44,004 bases of DNA from a virus (lineage: Duplodnaviria; Heunggongvirae; Uroviricota; Caudoviricetes), in the IMG/VR virus record IMGVR_UViG_2579778670_000004; one strand, given 5' to 3'. Position 1 is the first letter of the stretch. Every line of letters begins with the position of its first letter. The position numbers were made by a program, and so were the translations under genes. Below the pieces are notes generated by a model. The model was not told the DNA's origin and did not search any database. It saw only the letters and a list, made by a program, of their open reading frames with translations. This document shows, one piece after another, positions 22,976-30,733 of this stretch.

Positions 22976-23052
22976 GGTTAACTCCAGGTGGCGCGGCAGT
23001 GTTCAGAAAATGATGCCGGGTGTTCAATCCAGCACCGATATTATACCGTGTT

Positions 23053-23383: not shown

Positions 23384-24025
23384 TTATTTATCACTCCTGT
23401 AAATTGGAATTAACCATTTTCTAATCGTCGACGCTGCAGGTGGGTCAGAGTATTTCGCCACAAAAATACCGGATATGTATTGCACGCCACGCGATAATGG
23501 CGCTGTCGGGTTTTCAGTAAAAAAACGATCAGCCAGTTCAATGGCTTCGCTTTTTAATCTGTGCTGTGGTCGTCCTCCGCCCTTTGTTCCCAGGTATCGC
23601 GCCAGTTGTTTGAAACGGTAGGCGATGATTAACGGTCGCATCATCATATTGAAAAAATCGCGGGCATCGTTGTCAGCGCCTTGCGCTATCAACAGTGCAA
23701 AAAACAGATACGGGATTATGTACACTTCAGGAGATATACGAACCCGTTCACAAGTTGGTGGAGCCAACTCAATAAGTAAGTCAGCCAGCGGATTCCCCTT
23801 TTCTCCACGTTTGTAATAGCGATACAGCGGCCCGATATCAAGTTCACTCACGTCGATTTCAGGATGCCCGGCAACGACTGTACGTATCTCTTCTGCCAGA
23901 GCGTCAAATATTGCCCCGGTCCGTTCAAGATAGAGCCTCCGGGTCGAACCGCGATCATCCAACGCCCGTAACATATCTAACCGGCTAACGAAAGTTTCAG
24001 GCCAGTCCTCATAGAAGGTTTTCAT
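23384..24025 (-). CDS. Hypothetical cargo protein (unknown function)
   Basis: Start placed at the Met with GAGGT Shine-Dalgarno (MKTFYEDW...), 213 aa; no recognisable motif. Followed on its strand by a 9-bp inverted repeat AAACGGTTT/AAACCGTTT at about 23,342..23,370. Confidence 0.45.
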   Translation of the reverse strand: MKTFYEDWPETFVSRLDMLRALDDRGSTRRLYLERTGAIFDALAEEIRTVVAGHPEIDVSELDIGPLYRYYKRGEKGNPLADLLIELAPPTCERVRISPEVYIIPYLFFALLIAQGADNDARDFFNMMMRPLIIAYRFKQLARYLGTKGGGRPQHRLKSEAIELADRFFTENPTAPLSRGVQYISGIFVAKYSDPPAASTIRKWLIPIYRSDK

Positions 24026-24268
24026 AATTACCTCGAATAATAAAAACTGCACTATTTGCACAATTTATTATTCGTTTTCACGCCGCTGAGTTCTATAAAA
24101 AAGAAAAAACCTCCGAGGCAGGGTTTTGTTATGGCTCGTTAAATCATCATCCAACTTTTTAGACTGAACGGTGATACTTGCAAATATTTGAAAATATGGG
24201 CTGGAACCCTATCTTATGATGTGCCTGGTAATTTATATTGTTGGGTCTTTATATCATGAGGAATCACT

Positions 24269-24502
24269 ATGGGTACGTTAGGCAACCAGCCGTGCAGAAG
24301 TCGTTATGAGTTCGATGATTTTAATTTAGCCAATCGAGCTGCGGCTCTTACTAAGTTAGCAAAAGAAACTGGTGTATCGGTGGATACCTTAATCAAACTT
24401 GAAATTGCTATGCAACTGAATCGGCTCAACTCCATCCTTATCGAAAACGGTGACAAGATGGACGAGAATCTGGCAGGTATTGGCGAGATACTGCAGAAGT
24501 GA
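24269..24502 (+). CDS. Small protein, possible degenerate HTH regulator
   Basis: 77-aa ORF with GAGGA Shine-Dalgarno; segment LAKETGVSVDTLIKLE resembles an XRE-type helix-turn-helix; followed by hairpin CCCCTC-TTCT-GAGGGG. Confidence 0.4.
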   Translation: MGTLGNQPCRSRYEFDDFNLANRAAALTKLAKETGVSVDTLIKLEIAMQLNRLNSILIENGDKMDENLAGIGEILQK

Positions 24503-24809
24503 GAGTAGCCCCTCTTCTGAGGGGTTGCACATTTAAAATATTAAGGGCGGTCTTCTTCACGTACACAGTCACCTGGTCGAATCGTTCACGCATACTGAGT
24601 ACAAAAAATCTCAACGATAAGATCAGGTTAGACCTGTATTTTCCAGAAACATATAGACGCCTAAAAAAACACTAAACTCATGATTATCATGTATGTTTTT
24701 ACTGGAAACATTGAACCATCCACAATACAGCGTAAAAAGCAAGCAATTCACAAGATTTTAAAGTGATTTATCTGGAAGACTTTACTACTAACAGTTAATA
24801 TCGTACCAG

Positions 24810-24828
24810 AAGTGCAGAATTTGCACTT
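24810..24828. promoter_or_regulatory. 19-bp perfect palindrome AAGTGCAGAATTTGCACTT (candidate operator)
   Basis: Perfect inverted repeat about 75 bp upstream of the metallopeptidase start codon. Confidence 0.4.
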
Positions 24829-24900
24829 TTACAGGAATGTGGTACGGAACATGCTGTCTATATTTCAACCAATAATCGTAATGCAGTAACTGGAGGAGCT

Positions 24901-25389
24901 ATGGCTACCAACCCAAGAGAGCACGCCCGGCGAGTGCTGGACACGTTCTGGTGCGGGCGTGGTTTCCCTGTTGATCCAGCGAAAATTGCTCACGACATGG
25001 GATTAGATGTTTTTATTACCGATCTTCCTGGGAAAGTTTCTGGCGCACTGATTAAACAAAAAGATCAAGATCCAGCGATCTTTCTAAACAGTGATGACAA
25101 CAAAGTTCGTCAACGTTTTTCATGTGGGCATGAGTTGGGGCATTACATCGCCCGGCAAGCATCGCATAGCGATGAATATGAGTACGTTGATTTACGTGGC
25201 GAAACCGCAAGCGCCGGAACGCATCCTGATGAAATTTTTGCAAACAAGTTCGCAGCAGAACTTCTGATGCCGGTAGATGAGGTCAGAAAACTGCACGCTG
25301 ACGGTCAACCAAGTTATATAATGGCGCATTATTTTGGCGTATCTGACGATGCGATGACTTATCGTTTAAAGAACTTGAGGTTGGGGTAA
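24901..25389 (+). CDS. ImmA/IrrE-family zinc metallopeptidase (HExxH)
   Basis: 162-aa ORF with HELGHY motif and overall ImmA/IrrE (COG2856-type) pattern; GGAGGA Shine-Dalgarno. Confidence 0.7.
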   Translation: MATNPREHARRVLDTFWCGRGFPVDPAKIAHDMGLDVFITDLPGKVSGALIKQKDQDPAIFLNSDDNKVRQRFSCGHELGHYIARQASHSDEYEYVDLRGETASAGTHPDEIFANKFAAELLMPVDEVRKLHADGQPSYIMAHYFGVSDDAMTYRLKNLRLG

Positions 25390-25398
25390 CGCTTTAAA

Positions 25399-26004
25399 AT
25401 GCCATCGGATGACGATTTTAACAGCCGTTTCAAACAGGAAGTAGCACGCAGACTGAAGGATTCCCTCAACCTACACCGTCAGTTAGCAGAAGAGGTTGAG
25501 CCGGAGGACGATGAAACTCCGGTTCAGTCTCCTGACGAAGCTTCACCTCAGCCAAAGGTTTCGCACGCCCCCAAAAAAACGGCTGTCCGTATTCGCGGAA
25601 TAGCCAGAAAAAGAGCTGCCGAAGCTCGCAAAATGGCTGTAGCTGCGTCTAGCAAAAGAATTCCAACTGCTACACCCTCTCAACAAGTCACCCGTACTGA
25701 GAGTAAAATCTTGACCGAGTTCACATCTGTGAAACAGGTGAATTCACTTGATACCGAGCATGAGCGCAAACAACTCAACAACAAAGATTTTGAAGCAGAA
25801 ATCGCTCTAAAAAAACGATACGGGAAATGGTTCCTGATTATCCTTGCTTTCCAACTTCTGATAATGAATGGTGTATTTATTGCCGACGGCGCAGGTAAGC
25901 TGGAATTTGAGGATTTAACACTACAGTTGTACATGGGCGGTACTTTGACAGAGGTATTCGGCCTCGTGCTGGTCGTGACAAAATACCTTTTTAAACGCAA
26001 GTAA
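25399..26004 (+). CDS. Membrane protein with charged N-terminal region and two C-terminal transmembrane helices
   Basis: 201-aa ORF 9 bp after the peptidase stop; about 140 aa Lys/Arg/Glu-rich, then FLIILAFQLLIMNGVFIA and TLTEVFGLVLVVTKYLF helices. Confidence 0.55.
   Translation: MPSDDDFNSRFKQEVARRLKDSLNLHRQLAEEVEPEDDETPVQSPDEASPQPKVSHAPKKTAVRIRGIARKRAAEARKMAVAASSKRIPTATPSQQVTRTESKILTEFTSVKQVNSLDTEHERKQLNNKDFEAEIALKKRYGKWFLIILAFQLLIMNGVFIADGAGKLEFEDLTLQLYMGGTLTEVFGLVLVVTKYLFKRK
25933..26004 (+). repeat. Direct repeat copy 1 (3' end of membrane-protein gene)
   Basis: About 72 bp, roughly 90 percent identical to 29354..29425. Confidence 0.7.
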
Positions 26005-26248
26005 CTCTCTCGGTCCAACAGTCTTTCGAAGGCCCTGATCAAAGGGCCTTGATAAATTAGCAGTGCGTTGAAAACAGATAGTTATTCCCATCAGTTCCAA
26101 CGTAATACACATCAAAAAAATCACCATTCTTTTGCTCTAACGTCAACACCTACCCTTAAAAAAATAATTCTCCAAGAATGAGAAAGTTATTGTGTGTATT
26201 AGATAAGATATGAGCTGACACATCTATGGCGTGGAGCCAAATTTAATA

Positions 26249-26282
26249 TGACAGTCCGCTCTGTGCCATAAGCGGACTGTCA
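26249..26282. other. Perfect 11-bp inverted repeat (TGACAGTCCGC / GCGGACTGTCA) with 12-nt loop; possible terminator or protein-binding site
   Basis: Seen directly in sequence, in the intergenic space downstream of both convergent genes. Confidence 0.4.
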
Positions 26283-26466
26283 ATAAACAGATTCACTTGT
26301 AAATCTTGAAGCTATACATATTTACTTTCAATGATAAATAAAAGAACTATCCAAAAATCACTGAGAGCATATTTTAACTAACCCTCCGCTACTATTAACA
26401 TAAATTTCACCCAACCATAATTAAATTGATACATATAGCAACTTACCTTGATACGAATCATCTGGG

Positions 26467-27165
26467 TTATATTTTTCCATATTTTTTTCCGTCAAATCGA
26501 ATCATGCCAGGATCAAGAAAATTAATTAAATCGATTAACGCGTGCTGTATTCTGATTAGCCTTTCTTTATAAATTCCGATATCTCTTGTCATATTTATCA
26601 CTTCATTGTTTAAATCTAAAAAAAATGGCTCATTGATAAAGCAATTTTCCTTTGTGAAACTGCCGTAACCTATGCAATCAAATCCAGTATCTGTTGATAT
26701 CAGCATCTTTTCTGCAATAGCTCTCTGCTCTCCTATGAAAAACATAAAATACTGACCAAAGACGTCTGTTTGGATTAATGAGTTAATATTGTTCTGTAAT
26801 CTAATAAACTCCCTCATTTTTTTATTTTTTTCTAGGCTAAGGTATTGAATGTCTATGCGGGCAGCTTCTGTCCATGCAAAAAACTGGGAAAAAAGAAAAA
26901 CAGTATTGTTGATAACATAATCTTGTTGGCGCTTATTCCCATTATGATAAAACTCTTCAATGAACCCCAATTCTAATATATTATAAATACGGCTTTGTAA
27001 GTCTGAAGCTGAGCGAATTAACGGTTCAATATAGTACTGATGTTTTCTCCTTACATCCAGTGATTCATTGAGCTTGTTTATTCTATTCTGATTATAAGTA
27101 GATATAGCAATAGAGATTATAGCTATTGCACCACTAATAAAGCTTGAAATTAATGCCGTACCCAT
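26467..27165 (-). CDS. Hypothetical protein with N-terminal transmembrane anchor (unknown function, AT-rich cargo)
   Basis: 232-aa ORF; N-terminal hydrophobic helix (ALISSFISGAIAIISIAIS); low-GC codon usage unlike the phage backbone. Confidence 0.5.
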   Translation of the reverse strand: MGTALISSFISGAIAIISIAISTYNQNRINKLNESLDVRRKHQYYIEPLIRSASDLQSRIYNILELGFIEEFYHNGNKRQQDYVINNTVFLFSQFFAWTEAARIDIQYLSLEKNKKMREFIRLQNNINSLIQTDVFGQYFMFFIGEQRAIAEKMLISTDTGFDCIGYGSFTKENCFINEPFFLDLNNEVINMTRDIGIYKERLIRIQHALIDLINFLDPGMIRFDGKKYGKI

Positions 27166-28352
27166 CTAAAAGTCCTTTGATTCTTGCTTGGTTAACAAAA
27201 TGACATAATTTTATTTAATGCCATAACAACTTAACAATATATCATAATATGATTATTATGGTGTAGCTTGTCGCATCTACGCTCCATTACAAACAGATGT
27301 AAGATATAACCTATATGTTTTAGCCAGCAAATTCGAAAGCATTCAAAGTAGTCTCATCGAACTCTCGAAACCCTATGTCTTCGGGTATAAAATATTTAAA
27401 TCCATTTGCATAATATCGACTCATGTTTATTATATTCTCCCCATTCACCATTAAGATTTGACATTATTTTCAACAATCGGTTATTGCAAGATTGAAATAT
27501 ATTTTTACTTGACACAATATTCCATGTAGCCCAGCGATTCGACTTACCCCCAACTATACGGACAATCTAAATTAAATCGATGATTTTTTGATACATTCTC
27601 CTCTCTCCATTACTTTATGTTTTTGTTCCCCAAAAATACCTTGCTCTCTAAAAAATAATTGTTCTTTAAGTTCAAAATCGAGATCTACATGAGCGTTAGA
27701 TACAAAGCTAATATGTTGAAATGTCTTTCCCCCCCCATAACGGCATTGTTATCTAAACTATGTTACACAAATATAATATTACCCTTTCAACGTAATCCAA
27801 GAATAAGATTAATGCCATTATATATATCATAAATATGATATTTTGTATATTTTTATCATTTAGCCTTGATTGTACTAGGTGTACTCTCAACGAAGTAGGG
27901 AAAGTCTGTTCCTCGCTCACAGCTGCCCTTCAGTAAGCGAAAAAATGCCTACTCGGTGCCATATACAGCCATTGTTATTAACAGCAGGGAATAATTCAAA
28001 ACTGAAATTAAATATCTACCTTTTACAGTAGAAATAGTTCCTCCAGGACACTATCCATTGCCGGGCACAATCACTCGGGGTATAACGATATAAAATATGT
28101 TCATGATAGTGCAGGTTCGTATATTAAGTTCAGCAGCGAAAACATGCCTTACAGGTTTCCGGTTTTGGGAGCGTCGTTACAGGATCCTGCGCATACCGTT
28201 CCCATCTGTTGAATTAAAGGTTTCACAGCCTTTGCCGATATCACCTTTTACCTTACCTGTGATGCGTTCAGTGCTCAGCGTTGTTTACTGTAGCTCTCGG
28301 GACTGATTACAGACCGCGTCTTAAAAACCAATCCTTACTCTAAAGGGAATTC

Positions 28353-29276
28353 ATGAGATTAAAATACTCAGTACTCTTACTCGCCATTGCCCTTACAGGC
28401 TGTGATAACAAAAAAGATGAGATCGGTTGTTCTTCGGAAATAACCCAGTCAGCTCTCATGGATTTATTAAAAAAATCTGCTTATGAAGGACTCTCTGAAC
28501 AGGTCGATAAATACCCTGATGTCACTAATCAGACCAAACGAAGCACACTGGACAAGATCAAACTAGCCATCTCTGAGATCTCCACAACATCAAGTGACAC
28601 GGGCAGCACAATGAAAACTTGTGAAGGGACCGTGACGATGACTCTATCTGCGAACGAGTACGTCCAGCTTTCAGATGCTTACAGAAAGAATTTTAATCGT
28701 AATCTCGATAAGCAAATGGAAAGCCTGTTTTTGGAGAACAACGCAAACGCCTTTTCAAAACGTATCACCTACACCGTGCAGGCGACCGACGATCAGAAAA
28801 ACGTTTTTGTAAAAACCTCTACTGATAATCCGATATCAGTGGGCGCCGCTTTACTGACATCGCTTTCCATTATCACCCCGATCGTTGAGCAGCAGAAAAT
28901 CCAGCAGGCTAAGGATGCCCAACAGAGTCAAATTGAAGCGGAACAACAGGTGCAACTCAGGGCGCAAGAACAGGCTAAGTATGAGGCGGAGAAGCAAATA
29001 GAGAGACAGGCACAACTTCAGCCGCAAAAAGCTGACAACCTTGATCAGTCCCGAATGGCATTTGCGAATGCCGACTCTGATTTGAGTACCGTCTGGAGCA
29101 AGTTAACCCCGGCGAAGAAAAAAGATTTGCTGCCTTCTCAGCGTCAGTGGATCAAAACTAAGGATGCTATGTGCGGTAAAGTTTCAATGCAGGGAACAGA
29201 TGCTGAAGTCAAGAAAATGGTCGACTGCCAGACGCAAATGACCCTTTCAAGAATCGCTTTCCTCAGAAACCAATAA
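28353..29276 (+). CDS. Lipoprotein with C-terminal DUF1311 (LprI-like) domain
   Basis: 307-aa ORF; signal peptide plus lipobox LTGC; Gln/Glu-rich coiled-coil linker; C-terminal pattern QRQWIKTKDAMC...DCQTQMTLSRIAFL fits the DUF1311 signature as remembered. Confidence 0.55.
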   Translation: MRLKYSVLLLAIALTGCDNKKDEIGCSSEITQSALMDLLKKSAYEGLSEQVDKYPDVTNQTKRSTLDKIKLAISEISTTSSDTGSTMKTCEGTVTMTLSANEYVQLSDAYRKNFNRNLDKQMESLFLENNANAFSKRITYTVQATDDQKNVFVKTSTDNPISVGAALLTSLSIITPIVEQQKIQQAKDAQQSQIEAEQQVQLRAQEQAKYEAEKQIERQAQLQPQKADNLDQSRMAFANADSDLSTVWSKLTPAKKKDLLPSQRQWIKTKDAMCGKVSMQGTDAEVKKMVDCQTQMTLSRIAFLRNQ

Positions 29277-29353
29277 CTGAAGTCTCCTTCAAGCTGGCGC
29301 CAGGTGTTAACCTGGTGCCAGCTTAGTCATCAAGTGCATATGTAACTGTTTTA

Positions 29354-29425
29354 TATGGGCGGTACTTTGACAGAGGTATTCGGTCTCGTGCTGGTCGTGG
29401 TCAAATACCTTTTTAAGCGCAAATA
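29354..29425 (+). repeat. Direct repeat copy 2 (displaced duplicate of the membrane-protein gene 3' end)
   Basis: Core ATGGGCGGTACTTTGACAGAGGTATTCGG is identical to copy 1 and would encode the same C-terminal peptide (MGGTLTEVFGLVLVV..KYLFKRK). Confidence 0.7.
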
Positions 29426-29450
29426 GAGTATTTCCGCCCCAAACAACCTG

Positions 29451-30269
29451 TCAAAATGCTGAATTAGCAACGGATATAGCCGACTTTTTCCCCATTACCA
29501 TCAATTTATCCAGTGTCATACTTCGCAGATTGTCGCTGTGGATCACCAGATACCCTGCCCGCTCAGCGATCTCTTTGAAAGCGTCAAAGGTCATCAGATG
29601 TTCGCCTTTGGCAACATGGCGCATCCCGGTCACTTTTCCATTTTTGATAGTGGTGATAAAAGAAAAATCTGGAATGGTTGGGTGATTTTCATCGAGTAGC
29701 AGGCAGTGGATGTATTCAATCGCCTCTAACATTTGCGTCTGTGACAGTTGTTCTATGTGAGAGACGGCGAAGCGTTGATGAATCATGGTGTAGGCATCGG
29801 GATACATCATGCCTTTCTTGCCGACCAGTATATTAACGGCATCACGCAAGGGAGTACGGTCATCGGTAGTTGTACTCCGCCTCTCTGGACGCTGGCTAAA
29901 ATAACAATCTTCCAGCTTTTCGAAAACTTCCCAGGCCTGTTCTGTTTCCAGCATTTTGGCATGGCGAGCTGCGCCGCGTTCTGTCCAGAGAATGAGGGAT
30001 CGGGTATGTTTAGCAACTGACTGACTATCTGTCAGTCTGTTTTTGAAGTCGCGTAATTCATTACCTTCCAGCTTAAAAAAATGCTTTCCTACGACAAATC
30101 TGGCGATGTTGCGCTTGAAGTTTTGCTGGATACCATTTACTTCCGTGCCATACAAACTGGCAAGCAATTCAGTAGTGATGACGGGAAGTTGGTTATGATG
30201 TAGCGGAGAAAGGGATTCCGCAGATATTTGGACTGTCATCGCAGTGGCCTCACTTAGTGTTTTTTTCAT
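29451..30269 (-). CDS. Phage antirepressor (ORF6N-type N-terminal domain, KilAC-type C-terminal domain)
   Basis: N-terminal pattern LPVITTELLASLYG...NFKRNIARFVVGKHFFKLEG matches antirepressor domains as remembered. Start moved to the ATG at 30267..30269; the track ORF begins at a TTG at 30287. Confidence 0.6.
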   Translation of the reverse strand: MKKTLSEATAMTVQISAESLSPLHHNQLPVITTELLASLYGTEVNGIQQNFKRNIARFVVGKHFFKLEGNELRDFKNRLTDSQSVAKHTRSLILWTERGAARHAKMLETEQAWEVFEKLEDCYFSQRPERRSTTTDDRTPLRDAVNILVGKKGMMYPDAYTMIHQRFAVSHIEQLSQTQMLEAIEYIHCLLLDENHPTIPDFSFITTIKNGKVTGMRHVAKGEHLMTFDAFKEIAERAGYLVIHSDNLRSMTLDKLMVMGKKSAISVANSAF

Positions 30270-30511
30270 CACCACCAGCGACGCCAATCATCTGGTGGTG
30301 AGCTGTGCAGGGTTGGCGTAACCGGCTAAGTGAACCCGGCGCTTCCACAGAAGCCCCCACACAGCCCACCATAATGCGAATGTGGCCGTGCCTAACACAT
30401 AAAAAAACCGCTAACGCGGCTATGCGTCACTTAGATATCCGGGACGCCAATCCCGGCAACCGATTTTGCGGCTGCGCGGAAACTATAGCCCCGGACTTTT
30501 TCTAAGTCAAT

Positions 30512-30733
30512 TCAATCAACTTCAAACCTCCGGTGTTCACATTCCATACACTCAACGGGAACATCATCGCGATGCAAGTCCACATATCCGACCCGCTTAT
30601 ACAACTCAATAATGTCCGGTAACGTGACCAGATGTTTTTCCGGTTCCAACACCTCAGCCCGGGTTACTTTGTAATCTGAAATATAGAGCACTATCCGCCC
30701 GTTCCGTGGTAACTCCAGTTTATCGCCAAACAT
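30512..30733 (-). CDS. Hypothetical phage protein
   Basis: 73-aa ORF in the early-right operon. Confidence 0.35.
   Translation of the reverse strand: MFGDKLELPRNGRIVLYISDYKVTRAEVLEPEKHLVTLPDIIELYKRVGYVDLHRDDVPVECMECEHRRFEVD

Follow-up and report, generated by a model that had tools for sequence, protein, structure and literature searches.

A lambdoid-type prophage of Escherichia coli sequence type 131 (ST131) carries, in an accessory island, a slot of variable content beside a gene whose 3' end occurs a second time some 3.4 kb downstream. The prophage is contained in IMG/VR virus record IMGVR_UViG_2579778670_000004 (Caudoviricetes), whose whole stretch of 44,004 nucleotides is referred to here as the window. 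The gene encodes a 201-residue protein with two transmembrane (TM) helices (the 2-TM protein; 25399-26004, plus strand), and the slot lies between it and a conserved block around a gene for an LprI lipoprotein; the second copy of the gene end stands just beyond this block, in front of a gene for an ORF6N-domain antirepressor-like protein. The best explanation of this arrangement, which as a whole we consider moderately probable, is that the second copy is a scar of old recombination, that the slot receives its cargo through recombination in conserved linkers, and that the identical core of the repeat mediates deletion. An earlier note, made from the sequence alone, had interpreted the interval as a single cassette inserted or exchanged by recombination at the gene end, and this interpretation is partly supported.

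A repeat search joins 25923-26003 and 29345-29425 (both plus strand) into one direct repeat of 81 nucleotides with 89% identity, the copies lying 3422 bp apart; all other repeat families detected in the region by the same search are at most 18 nucleotides long. The repeat noticed previously is thus confirmed, including its identical core of 29 nucleotides (25933-25961), but it starts about 10 nucleotides further to the left. This core is the sole exact direct repeat of at least 20 nucleotides in the 44-kb window, and the longest repeat expected by chance, as estimated from 30 first-order Markov simulations of the window, is 14-18 nucleotides. Copy 1 is the functional 3' end of the 2-TM gene, designated module M, and in the frame of that gene it encodes a peptide ending in QLYMGGTLTEVFGLVLVVTKYLFKRK, followed by the stop codon; copy 2, read in the same frame, would give LFYMGGTLTEVFGLVLVVVKYLFKRK and a stop. 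The homology of the copies extends no further than the stop codon (TAA versus TAG), and copy 2 is directly preceded by an in-frame TAA. Module M is 100% identical across all relatives that bear the 2-TM gene. The repeat pair is no assembly artefact, since more than 400 complete E. coli genomes have an identical locus.

Comparison of relatives shows that copy 2 is a non-coding relic, which probably has no function of its own. Among the loci compared, which are designated by L numbers (L003 is AVS0747, L006 is GPEC172, L027 is E. whittamii and L035 is an IMG/VR contig), a deletion of one nucleotide breaks the frame of the relic in the SE11-type loci L004, L007, L008, L009, L027 and L034, and L035 retains only the last 13 nucleotides (TAAGCGCAAATAG), adjoining the ORF6N gene. 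Both observations bear out the suggestion that copy 2 is a displaced, non-functional gene 3' end. In LCP30S3_I5, one copy of the gene end contains an in-frame stop. The ST131 relic has valine at position 194, a position at which all 15 aligned functional homologues have threonine. Retention of the last 13 nucleotides of the relic beside ORF6N also rules out L035 as a representative of the state before the duplication.

The position of the relic is fixed with respect to the LprI gene. SE11 and LCP30S3_I5 lack both the 2-TM gene and the protease gene that precedes it (vide infra), yet they retain the relic after LprI, and the same order of LprI followed by relic is found in 443 of the 443 complete genomes that carry the LprI gene. 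In every lineage, the LprI hairpin is joined to the relic in an identical manner. No second copy of the gene end was found beside distant homologues of the 2-TM gene (L010-L017, L028, L029 and L036-L040), which come from Klebsiella, Enterobacter, Leclercia, Buttiauxella and IMG/VR contigs. Because the junction is common to all lineages and is absent from the distant homologues, the relic is attributed to a single old event in this Escherichia prophage family and not to a recurring process. An insertion at the gene end, as had been proposed, is difficult to reconcile with a junction that is old and that is also fixed in prophages without the 2-TM gene, and the lack of a recombinase and of any recurrence at the distant homologues speaks against a mobile insertion at that site.

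The duplicated unit was thought to be the gene end only, but in relatives it extends over 355 bp and includes the downstream flank in addition to the 3' end. The relic and flank of E. whittamii (L027 14125-14478) match 25922-26276 of the window with 96.3% identity over 355 bp, and are followed there by 2.4 kb of further cargo and then by ORF6N. Flank F (26005-26194), which was delimited by comparison with L027 and LCP30S3_I5, is the native downstream flank of the 2-TM gene and also follows the relic in E. whittamii and LCP30S3_I5. Both gene-end copies have the flank in LCP30S3_I5; in ST131, it is present on copy 1 only, and copy 2 abuts ORF6N directly. A GC-rich hairpin can be read from the sequence of flank F at about 26029-26050.

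Instead of one single cassette, the 3.4 kb between the copies is a composite of flank F, a Z-type moron (26195-27923, minus strand) and the conserved LprI block (27924-29344, plus strand). The two genes in the interval are not convergent, as had been stated, but divergent, with the gene for a 232-residue protein on the minus strand (26467-27165) and the LprI gene on the plus strand (28353-29276). The AT-richness ascribed to the intervening DNA is confirmed for 26050-28000, with a GC content of 29-34%, but not for the LprI part, where a GC content of 44% is normal for the prophage. Foreign AT-rich cargo is nevertheless present in the form of the moron, which comprises 1.73 kb with a GC content of 32%, compared to 48% for the window. 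The LprI block, which is conserved from 27910-27952 rightwards in all variants, consists of an upstream region of about 430 bp, the LprI gene, with a C-terminal LprI/DUF1311 domain (Pfam PF07007, 4.1e-7), and a hairpin 3' of this gene (29291-29324). Exchange had been expected at the repeats themselves; pairwise comparison instead places the cargo breakpoints at 26026 (the GIY-YIG/T5orf172 type, in L002, L007, L009, L027 and L034), at 26276-26281, or about 26277 (L003, L027, L032, L035 and L041), and at 27910-27952 (all variants).

Alternative cargos, for which a search of related prophages had been suggested, do exist: at least six distinct contents occur in these prophages to the left of the LprI block, bounded at their own left end by either the 2-TM gene or a 213-residue gene. 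The cargo of SE11 includes PD-T4-3 (5.7e-138) with an HNH protein, that of AVS0747 includes HEC-08 (1.1e-173) with a 200-residue tyrosine recombinase, and that of LCP30S3_I5 includes an NsnA/PD-T4-2_A-like protein, a GmrSD-like DUF262 protein (4.6e-41). Other sibling cargos comprise the GIY-YIG/T5orf172 set, and some are without a match. On this predicted gene content, the slot between the 2-TM gene and the LprI block is a prophage hotspot for defence genes and morons. The AVS0747 recombinase (L003 2334-2936) is of FimB/FimE size and lies next to an ETEC_3214-family gene, and may represent an invertible switch.

The ST131 cargo has its homologue in the insert carried by the Z region of P2-like prophages. 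Over 1741 nucleotides, it shares 86% identity with GenBank AJ512683.1, described as 'Bacteriophage P2-EC58 proviral Z-region, ORF1, putative lysogenic protein', and the encoded proteins are 93% identical; it matches equally a P2-like prophage of strain EC-107, where the cassette is located between the tail-fibre assembly (G) and tail-sheath (FI) genes. Features annotated in the AJ512683.1 record are a promoter, located about 200 nucleotides upstream of the open reading frame (ORF), a ribosome-binding site, and left and right inverted repeats. Its 'left inverted repeat' corresponds by alignment to an element of about 85 nucleotides at the left end of the window cassette (26197-26282), of which 26197-26281 is a recurrent cargo breakpoint; a terminator scan detects in it a hairpin with an 11-bp stem (26249-26282, called on the minus strand) that resembles a bidirectional terminator. 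The right repeat is truncated at 27923 in the window, and no significant terminal inverted repeats were detected in a local alignment of the cassette ends (score 18 versus a shuffle mean of 17.8). About 1000 complete E. coli genomes contain weak copies of 26197-26281 (60-80% identity); examples are a copy in E. coli B that separates nanQ from a small transposase gene, and copies in further prophages. The element may be a recombination site, a shared terminator or an element resembling miniature inverted-repeat transposable elements. In some ST131 genomes, IS1 or ISEc52 is found inside the cassette.

The 232-residue 'lysogenic protein' encoded by the cassette is predicted to contain an N-terminal TM helix and an all-alpha domain. 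It belongs to no Pfam or NCBIfam family and gives generic fold matches only, apart from a weak RTasTM match (1.8e-5). Its homologues are encoded by stand-alone genes; a xanthomonad has such a gene next to SIR2-HerA, Providencia has one within a P2-type prophage, and in Serratia one lies beside an ORC/Cdc6-like ATPase. The ORF-poor, AT-rich region upstream of the gene (27166-27923) has no annotated feature in 413 genomes, and is 81-86% conserved in P2-like prophages; this region always travels with the gene. The entire stretch between the divergent 232-residue and LprI genes (27166-28352) measures 1.2 kb and contains no ORF of more than 69 residues; its left 745 bp always accompany the 232-residue gene, and its right 430 bp or so always accompany LprI. 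It may consist of long untranslated or regulatory regions, or of unrecognised small genes or RNAs. An Rfam search of 24000-30500 gave no match within this stretch or elsewhere between the repeats, and the signal from a promoter scan was not above shuffle expectation.

The 81-nucleotide copies are themselves recombinogenic. An artificial junction, in which 25399-25932 was fused to 29355-30287, was searched against complete genomes, and GPEC172 matches it in one piece, over 100% of its length and with 100% identity. This arrangement is found in only one of the 479 genomes that match either half. GPEC172 carries the same prophage proteins, and a comparison of about 4.6 kb outside the repeat reveals a single difference from the window, at position 23013. 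Within its single repeat, the three left variant sites are of copy-1 type and the six right sites are of copy-2 type, which places the crossover within the 29-nucleotide core. The relic-bearing arrangement is common to prophages that have diverged by 2-9% and to a second species, E. whittamii, and GPEC172 is therefore most economically read as a recent homologous deletion of the flank, the cargo and LprI. The empty site that had been anticipated thus exists in a precise form, but is best interpreted as a secondary deletion and not as the state before insertion. The deletion leaves a hybrid 2-TM gene (L006 6001-6606) with the substitution T194V (window 25978-25980), and this hybrid allele occurs on 23 contigs in a wider collection. 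The substitution affects a residue that is invariant in 15 natural homologues, so that the 2-TM protein may be inactivated or altered as a further result of the deletion.

The 2-TM protein belongs to a family that is spread across the Enterobacteriaceae. In an alignment of homologues, the N-terminal half and the loop between TM1 and TM2 are hypervariable, whereas the last 29 residues, which form the C-terminal helix, are almost invariant. The corresponding 29 codons of distant homologues display 20-26 synonymous versus 0-4 non-synonymous changes, and the constraint on the gene end therefore acts on the protein and not on the DNA; this saturated synonymous change rules out the gene end as a universal linker conserved at the DNA level. 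Within the closer family, the functional alleles of L007, L027 and L035 have 27 differences from the window in 25755-25923, 17 of these in the last 45 nucleotides, and none in 25924-26004; in L035, the identity continues up to 26238. To within a few nucleotides, this perfectly shared module starts at the point that corresponds to the left edge of the relic, at about 25923.

Immediately upstream lies the gene for an ImmA/IrrE (Peptidase_M78) metalloprotease that resembles CapP (24901-25389, plus strand; Pfam PF06114, 7.7e-18; PADLOC capP, 2.4e-25), the first gene of the pair. The same pair is found beside an integrase in Klebsiella oxytoca and in another E. coli prophage, and before a holin in Enterobacter. 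With this occurrence at different positions of unrelated prophages in several genera, the protease and 2-TM genes form a portable two-gene module. The pair could serve in phage exclusion or abortive infection, the protease acting as the control of a membrane effector. A tblastn search of 50,697 phage records gave no match to the 2-TM protein, and sequence searches of Pfam, NCBIfam and the PDB gave nothing informative for either the 2-TM or the 232-residue protein.

In the history that we favour, copy 2 would be the fossil 3' end of an earlier or sister 2-TM gene, originally accompanied by about 275 bp of downstream flank. One old out-of-register recombination between related phage genomes may have cut this relic from its gene by joining the terminator of the LprI block to the last 85 or so nucleotides of a 2-TM gene. 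The donor would have provided everything through the 2-TM gene, flank, cargo, LprI and hairpin, and the recipient would have provided the last 85 or so nucleotides of its own 2-TM gene, the flank and what follows. Since then, as the comparison of related prophages shows, the slot between the intact gene and the LprI block has held different self-contained morons. These were probably exchanged by homologous recombination in conserved linkers, the left linker being the gene end with its flank and the right one being the LprI block. The breakpoints pile up at the hairpin repeat near 26277 and at 27910-27952, and a crossover in the 29-nucleotide core deletes the flank, cargo and LprI in one step, as in GPEC172.

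Several points weigh against this history. The founding event is reconstructed as one illegitimate join, for which the donor arrangement is hypothetical, and no prophage with the LprI block in a native context free of the relic was found among the 443 LprI-bearing genomes. A random illegitimate join does not predict that the mosaic boundary of the functional alleles and the edge of the relic coincide at 25923; exchange through linkers explains this boundary only indirectly, on the assumption that, beyond the hypervariable loop, crossovers take place solely in the first stretch that matches well. Judged by its junction alone, the arrangement of GPEC172 might in principle be ancestral. Finally, it is by guilt by association that the 232-residue gene becomes a plausible candidate for a role in phage exclusion or defence.

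The coincidence at 25923 could also be accommodated by a mobile cassette that brings its own replacement 3' end (module M, 25924-26004, and the flank), inserts in a targeted or site-specific manner at about 25923 and displaces the 3' end of the resident gene, so that the repeats would represent attL and attR. This element of the earlier note, a cargo that supplies its own gene end, does gain from the sharp boundary at the left repeat edge, since module M is 100% identical on diverged gene bodies; the variant sites of GPEC172 would also fit a crossover in a common core, though a precise site with one hybrid repeat is predicted equally well by homologous recombination in the 29-nucleotide core, the left end of the cargo is a dispersed hairpin repeat that is annotated as an inverted repeat in the P2 Z-region record, and the sibling cargo of AVS0747 encodes a tyrosine recombinase. 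However, neither of the proteins encoded between the repeats in the window, the 232-residue protein and LprI, has a recombinase domain, and the alternative cargos neither begin nor end at the repeats. LprI and the relic stay when ImmA and the 2-TM gene are absent, the 355-bp duplicated unit of the relatives is more than an att core, no distant homologue of the 2-TM gene has a second copy beside it, and the cassette is without significant terminal inverted repeats. Such an insertion is therefore considered unlikely. A more specialised variant, in which the gene end with its flank and the hairpin repeat at 26197-26281 would be recognition sites of a dedicated, loosely integron-like system of cassette exchange, is quite improbable. 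Such a system would carry defence morons from one phage type to another, unrelated one, would repair the interrupted gene every time and would have the coincidence at 25923 as its footprint.

A different order of events would make GPEC172 the ancestral, uninterrupted arrangement, with the 2-TM gene convergent on ORF6N, and the 3.4 kb a recent insertion in the ST131 prophage lineage. Its junction looks exactly as an empty site would, and the 13 nucleotides of copy-2-type end beside ORF6N in L035 show that a gene end abutting ORF6N is an old arrangement. However, GPEC172 is a single genome among the 479, separated by one difference from the ST131 prophage, while the relic is shared by far more diverged prophages and by E. 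whittamii. Moreover, its 81-nucleotide segment combines the two ST131 copies as a clean chimera, and valine at position 194 is otherwise not known in functional alleles; an ancestral GPEC172 is accordingly very improbable. It is scarcely credible that copy 2 is functional, either by encoding a 23-residue hydrophobic peptide (MGGTLTEVFGLVLVVVKYLFKRK) similar to a type I toxin or as an RNA that would regulate the 2-TM mRNA or act as its decoy. The putative peptide starts with ATG and is open to the stop in ST131 and L005, and copy 2 is kept in 443 genomes, but it is reduced to a frameshifted ORF of 14 codons in the SE11-type lineages and nearly lost in L035, no Shine-Dalgarno sequence is visible upstream, no Rfam family matches it, and it sits between two convergent terminator regions.

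The history of an old scar and linker-mediated exchange can be compared with several known systems. P2 and P4 prophages contain hotspots of anti-phage systems for which, according to Rousset et al. (2022, PMC9122126), the pathways of exchange have yet to be validated. As in those hotspots and in morons generally, conserved phage genes surround a slot of variable content, the cargos include validated or candidate defence genes (PD-T4-3, HEC-08 and the GmrSD-like gene), and the cargo is AT-rich with its own promoter and terminator (the promoter being annotated in the P2-EC58 record). Unlike in the P2 and P4 hotspots, the slot described here belongs to a lambdoid-type prophage, is part of an opposite-strand island between the replication genes and Q instead of lying next to cos, and also keeps a recombination scar, the relic, and a natural deletion product, both of which bear directly on the routes of exchange. 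With the Z/fun-region inserts of P2-like phages, the window shares the same cassette (26195-27923), including the ORF-free upstream region and the left repeat, but those inserts lie between tail-fibre assembly and tail-sheath genes and have annotated inverted repeats, whereas the cassette here lies between the 2-TM gene and the LprI block of another phage type. The authors of the P2 Z-region record, Nilsson, Karlsson and Haggard-Ljungquist (2004, Mol Biol Evol 21:1), invoke site-specific recombination in the title of their paper, which is a further point in favour of the targeted insertion considered above.

Phage 21 and e14, which integrate at icd, and many elements that integrate at tRNA genes insert in the 3' end of a gene and supply a substitute end. 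As in such elements, foreign DNA lies between two direct copies of the last codons of a gene, of which the upstream one completes the gene and the downstream one is left orphaned, differing from it silently and otherwise. Here, however, there is no integrase, the repeat is a diverged homology of 81-355 bp instead of a short identical core with arm sites, the cargo ends elsewhere than at the repeats, and the event does not recur in other members of the target family. A second parallel comes from the rhs and cdiA loci, where displaced orphan C-terminal modules lie downstream and consist of a variable toxin tip with its immunity gene, still functional. The relic resembles these orphans as a recombination-displaced 3' fragment that lies downstream of an intact gene and is able to recombine back, but the part displaced here is the most conserved segment of the gene, has no partner gene and is decaying. 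Boundary or 'linker' sequences are said to feature in the modular theory of lambdoid phage evolution, in work by Susskind and Botstein in 1978, Juhala et al. in 2000 and Clark et al. in 2001. The present locus has the same short conserved stretches between variable modules that are favoured for homologous exchange, and the same sharp transitions from 100% to about 60-80% identity at module edges. It differs in that one linker is the 3' end of a coding gene under extreme protein-level constraint, of which a duplicate copy allows intramolecular deletion.

The assignment of the window to ST131 follows from the 5.6 kb around the repeats, which are 100% identical to ST131 genomes such as EC958 and JJ1886; this region is detected in 582 of 5426 complete E. 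coli genomes, in 403 of these over at least 80% of its length. The integration site of the prophage adjoins tRNA-Leu/Cys/Gly. Read leftwards along the minus strand, its genes are, in order, cro-like, YdaT, replication genes and DnaB, small genes, the ORF6N antirepressor, the island, DUF1367, DUF1364, Q, lysis, and head and tail genes. The accessory island accordingly lies between the replication genes and the Q antiterminator, and has genes on the opposite, plus strand, namely a 77-residue ORF, the ImmA/IrrE protease, the 2-TM gene and LprI. Its conserved right-hand flank is the ORF6N-domain gene (29451-30239, minus strand, RefSeq coordinates; Pfam PF10543, 1e-21; PHROG anti-repressor), which is convergent on the relic.

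Directly upstream of the ORF6N gene, also on the minus strand, Rfam models identify the C4 antisense RNA (30291-30376, 75 bits), isrK (30401-30475, 80 bits) and the c4 a1/b1 target element (30436-30488, 53 bits), and 30291-30488 is a P1/P7 immI-like antisense-controlled antirepressor module inside a lambdoid-type prophage. Near these c4 and isrK RNAs, RefSeq annotates a 73-residue gene (WP_000466605.1) between ORF6N and the next gene in GPEC172 (L006 7692-7913) and in SE11; EC958 has no such annotation, though the same ORF exists (window 30512-30733, minus strand). Type I-E arrays of clustered regularly interspaced short palindromic repeats in other E. coli strains contain 32-nucleotide spacers that match this prophage at 32 of 32 positions. 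The protospacers at 25955-25986, 28353-28384 and 30082-30113 have the proper protospacer-adjacent motifs AAG, ATG and AAG and fall within the repeated end of the 2-TM gene (copy-1 type), on the start codon of LprI and within the ORF6N gene, respectively, and a further protospacer is located at 25107-25141; the spacer against the LprI start is found in many genomes.

Prophage hotspots are now a main hunting ground for anti-phage systems, and how their cargos are swapped is largely conjecture. The present locus, in the globally dominant ST131 clone, keeps side by side a scar, linkers in which breakpoints could be mapped, no fewer than six cargos, a cassette that P2-like phages also carry, and a natural deletion mapped to within 29 nucleotides. 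Two candidates for phage exclusion are nominated, the 232-residue 'lysogenic protein' and the module of an ImmA/CapP-like protease and the 2-TM protein. The locus represents an ordinary but well-documented case of mosaic evolution of phages, and it documents current views of that process without overturning them.

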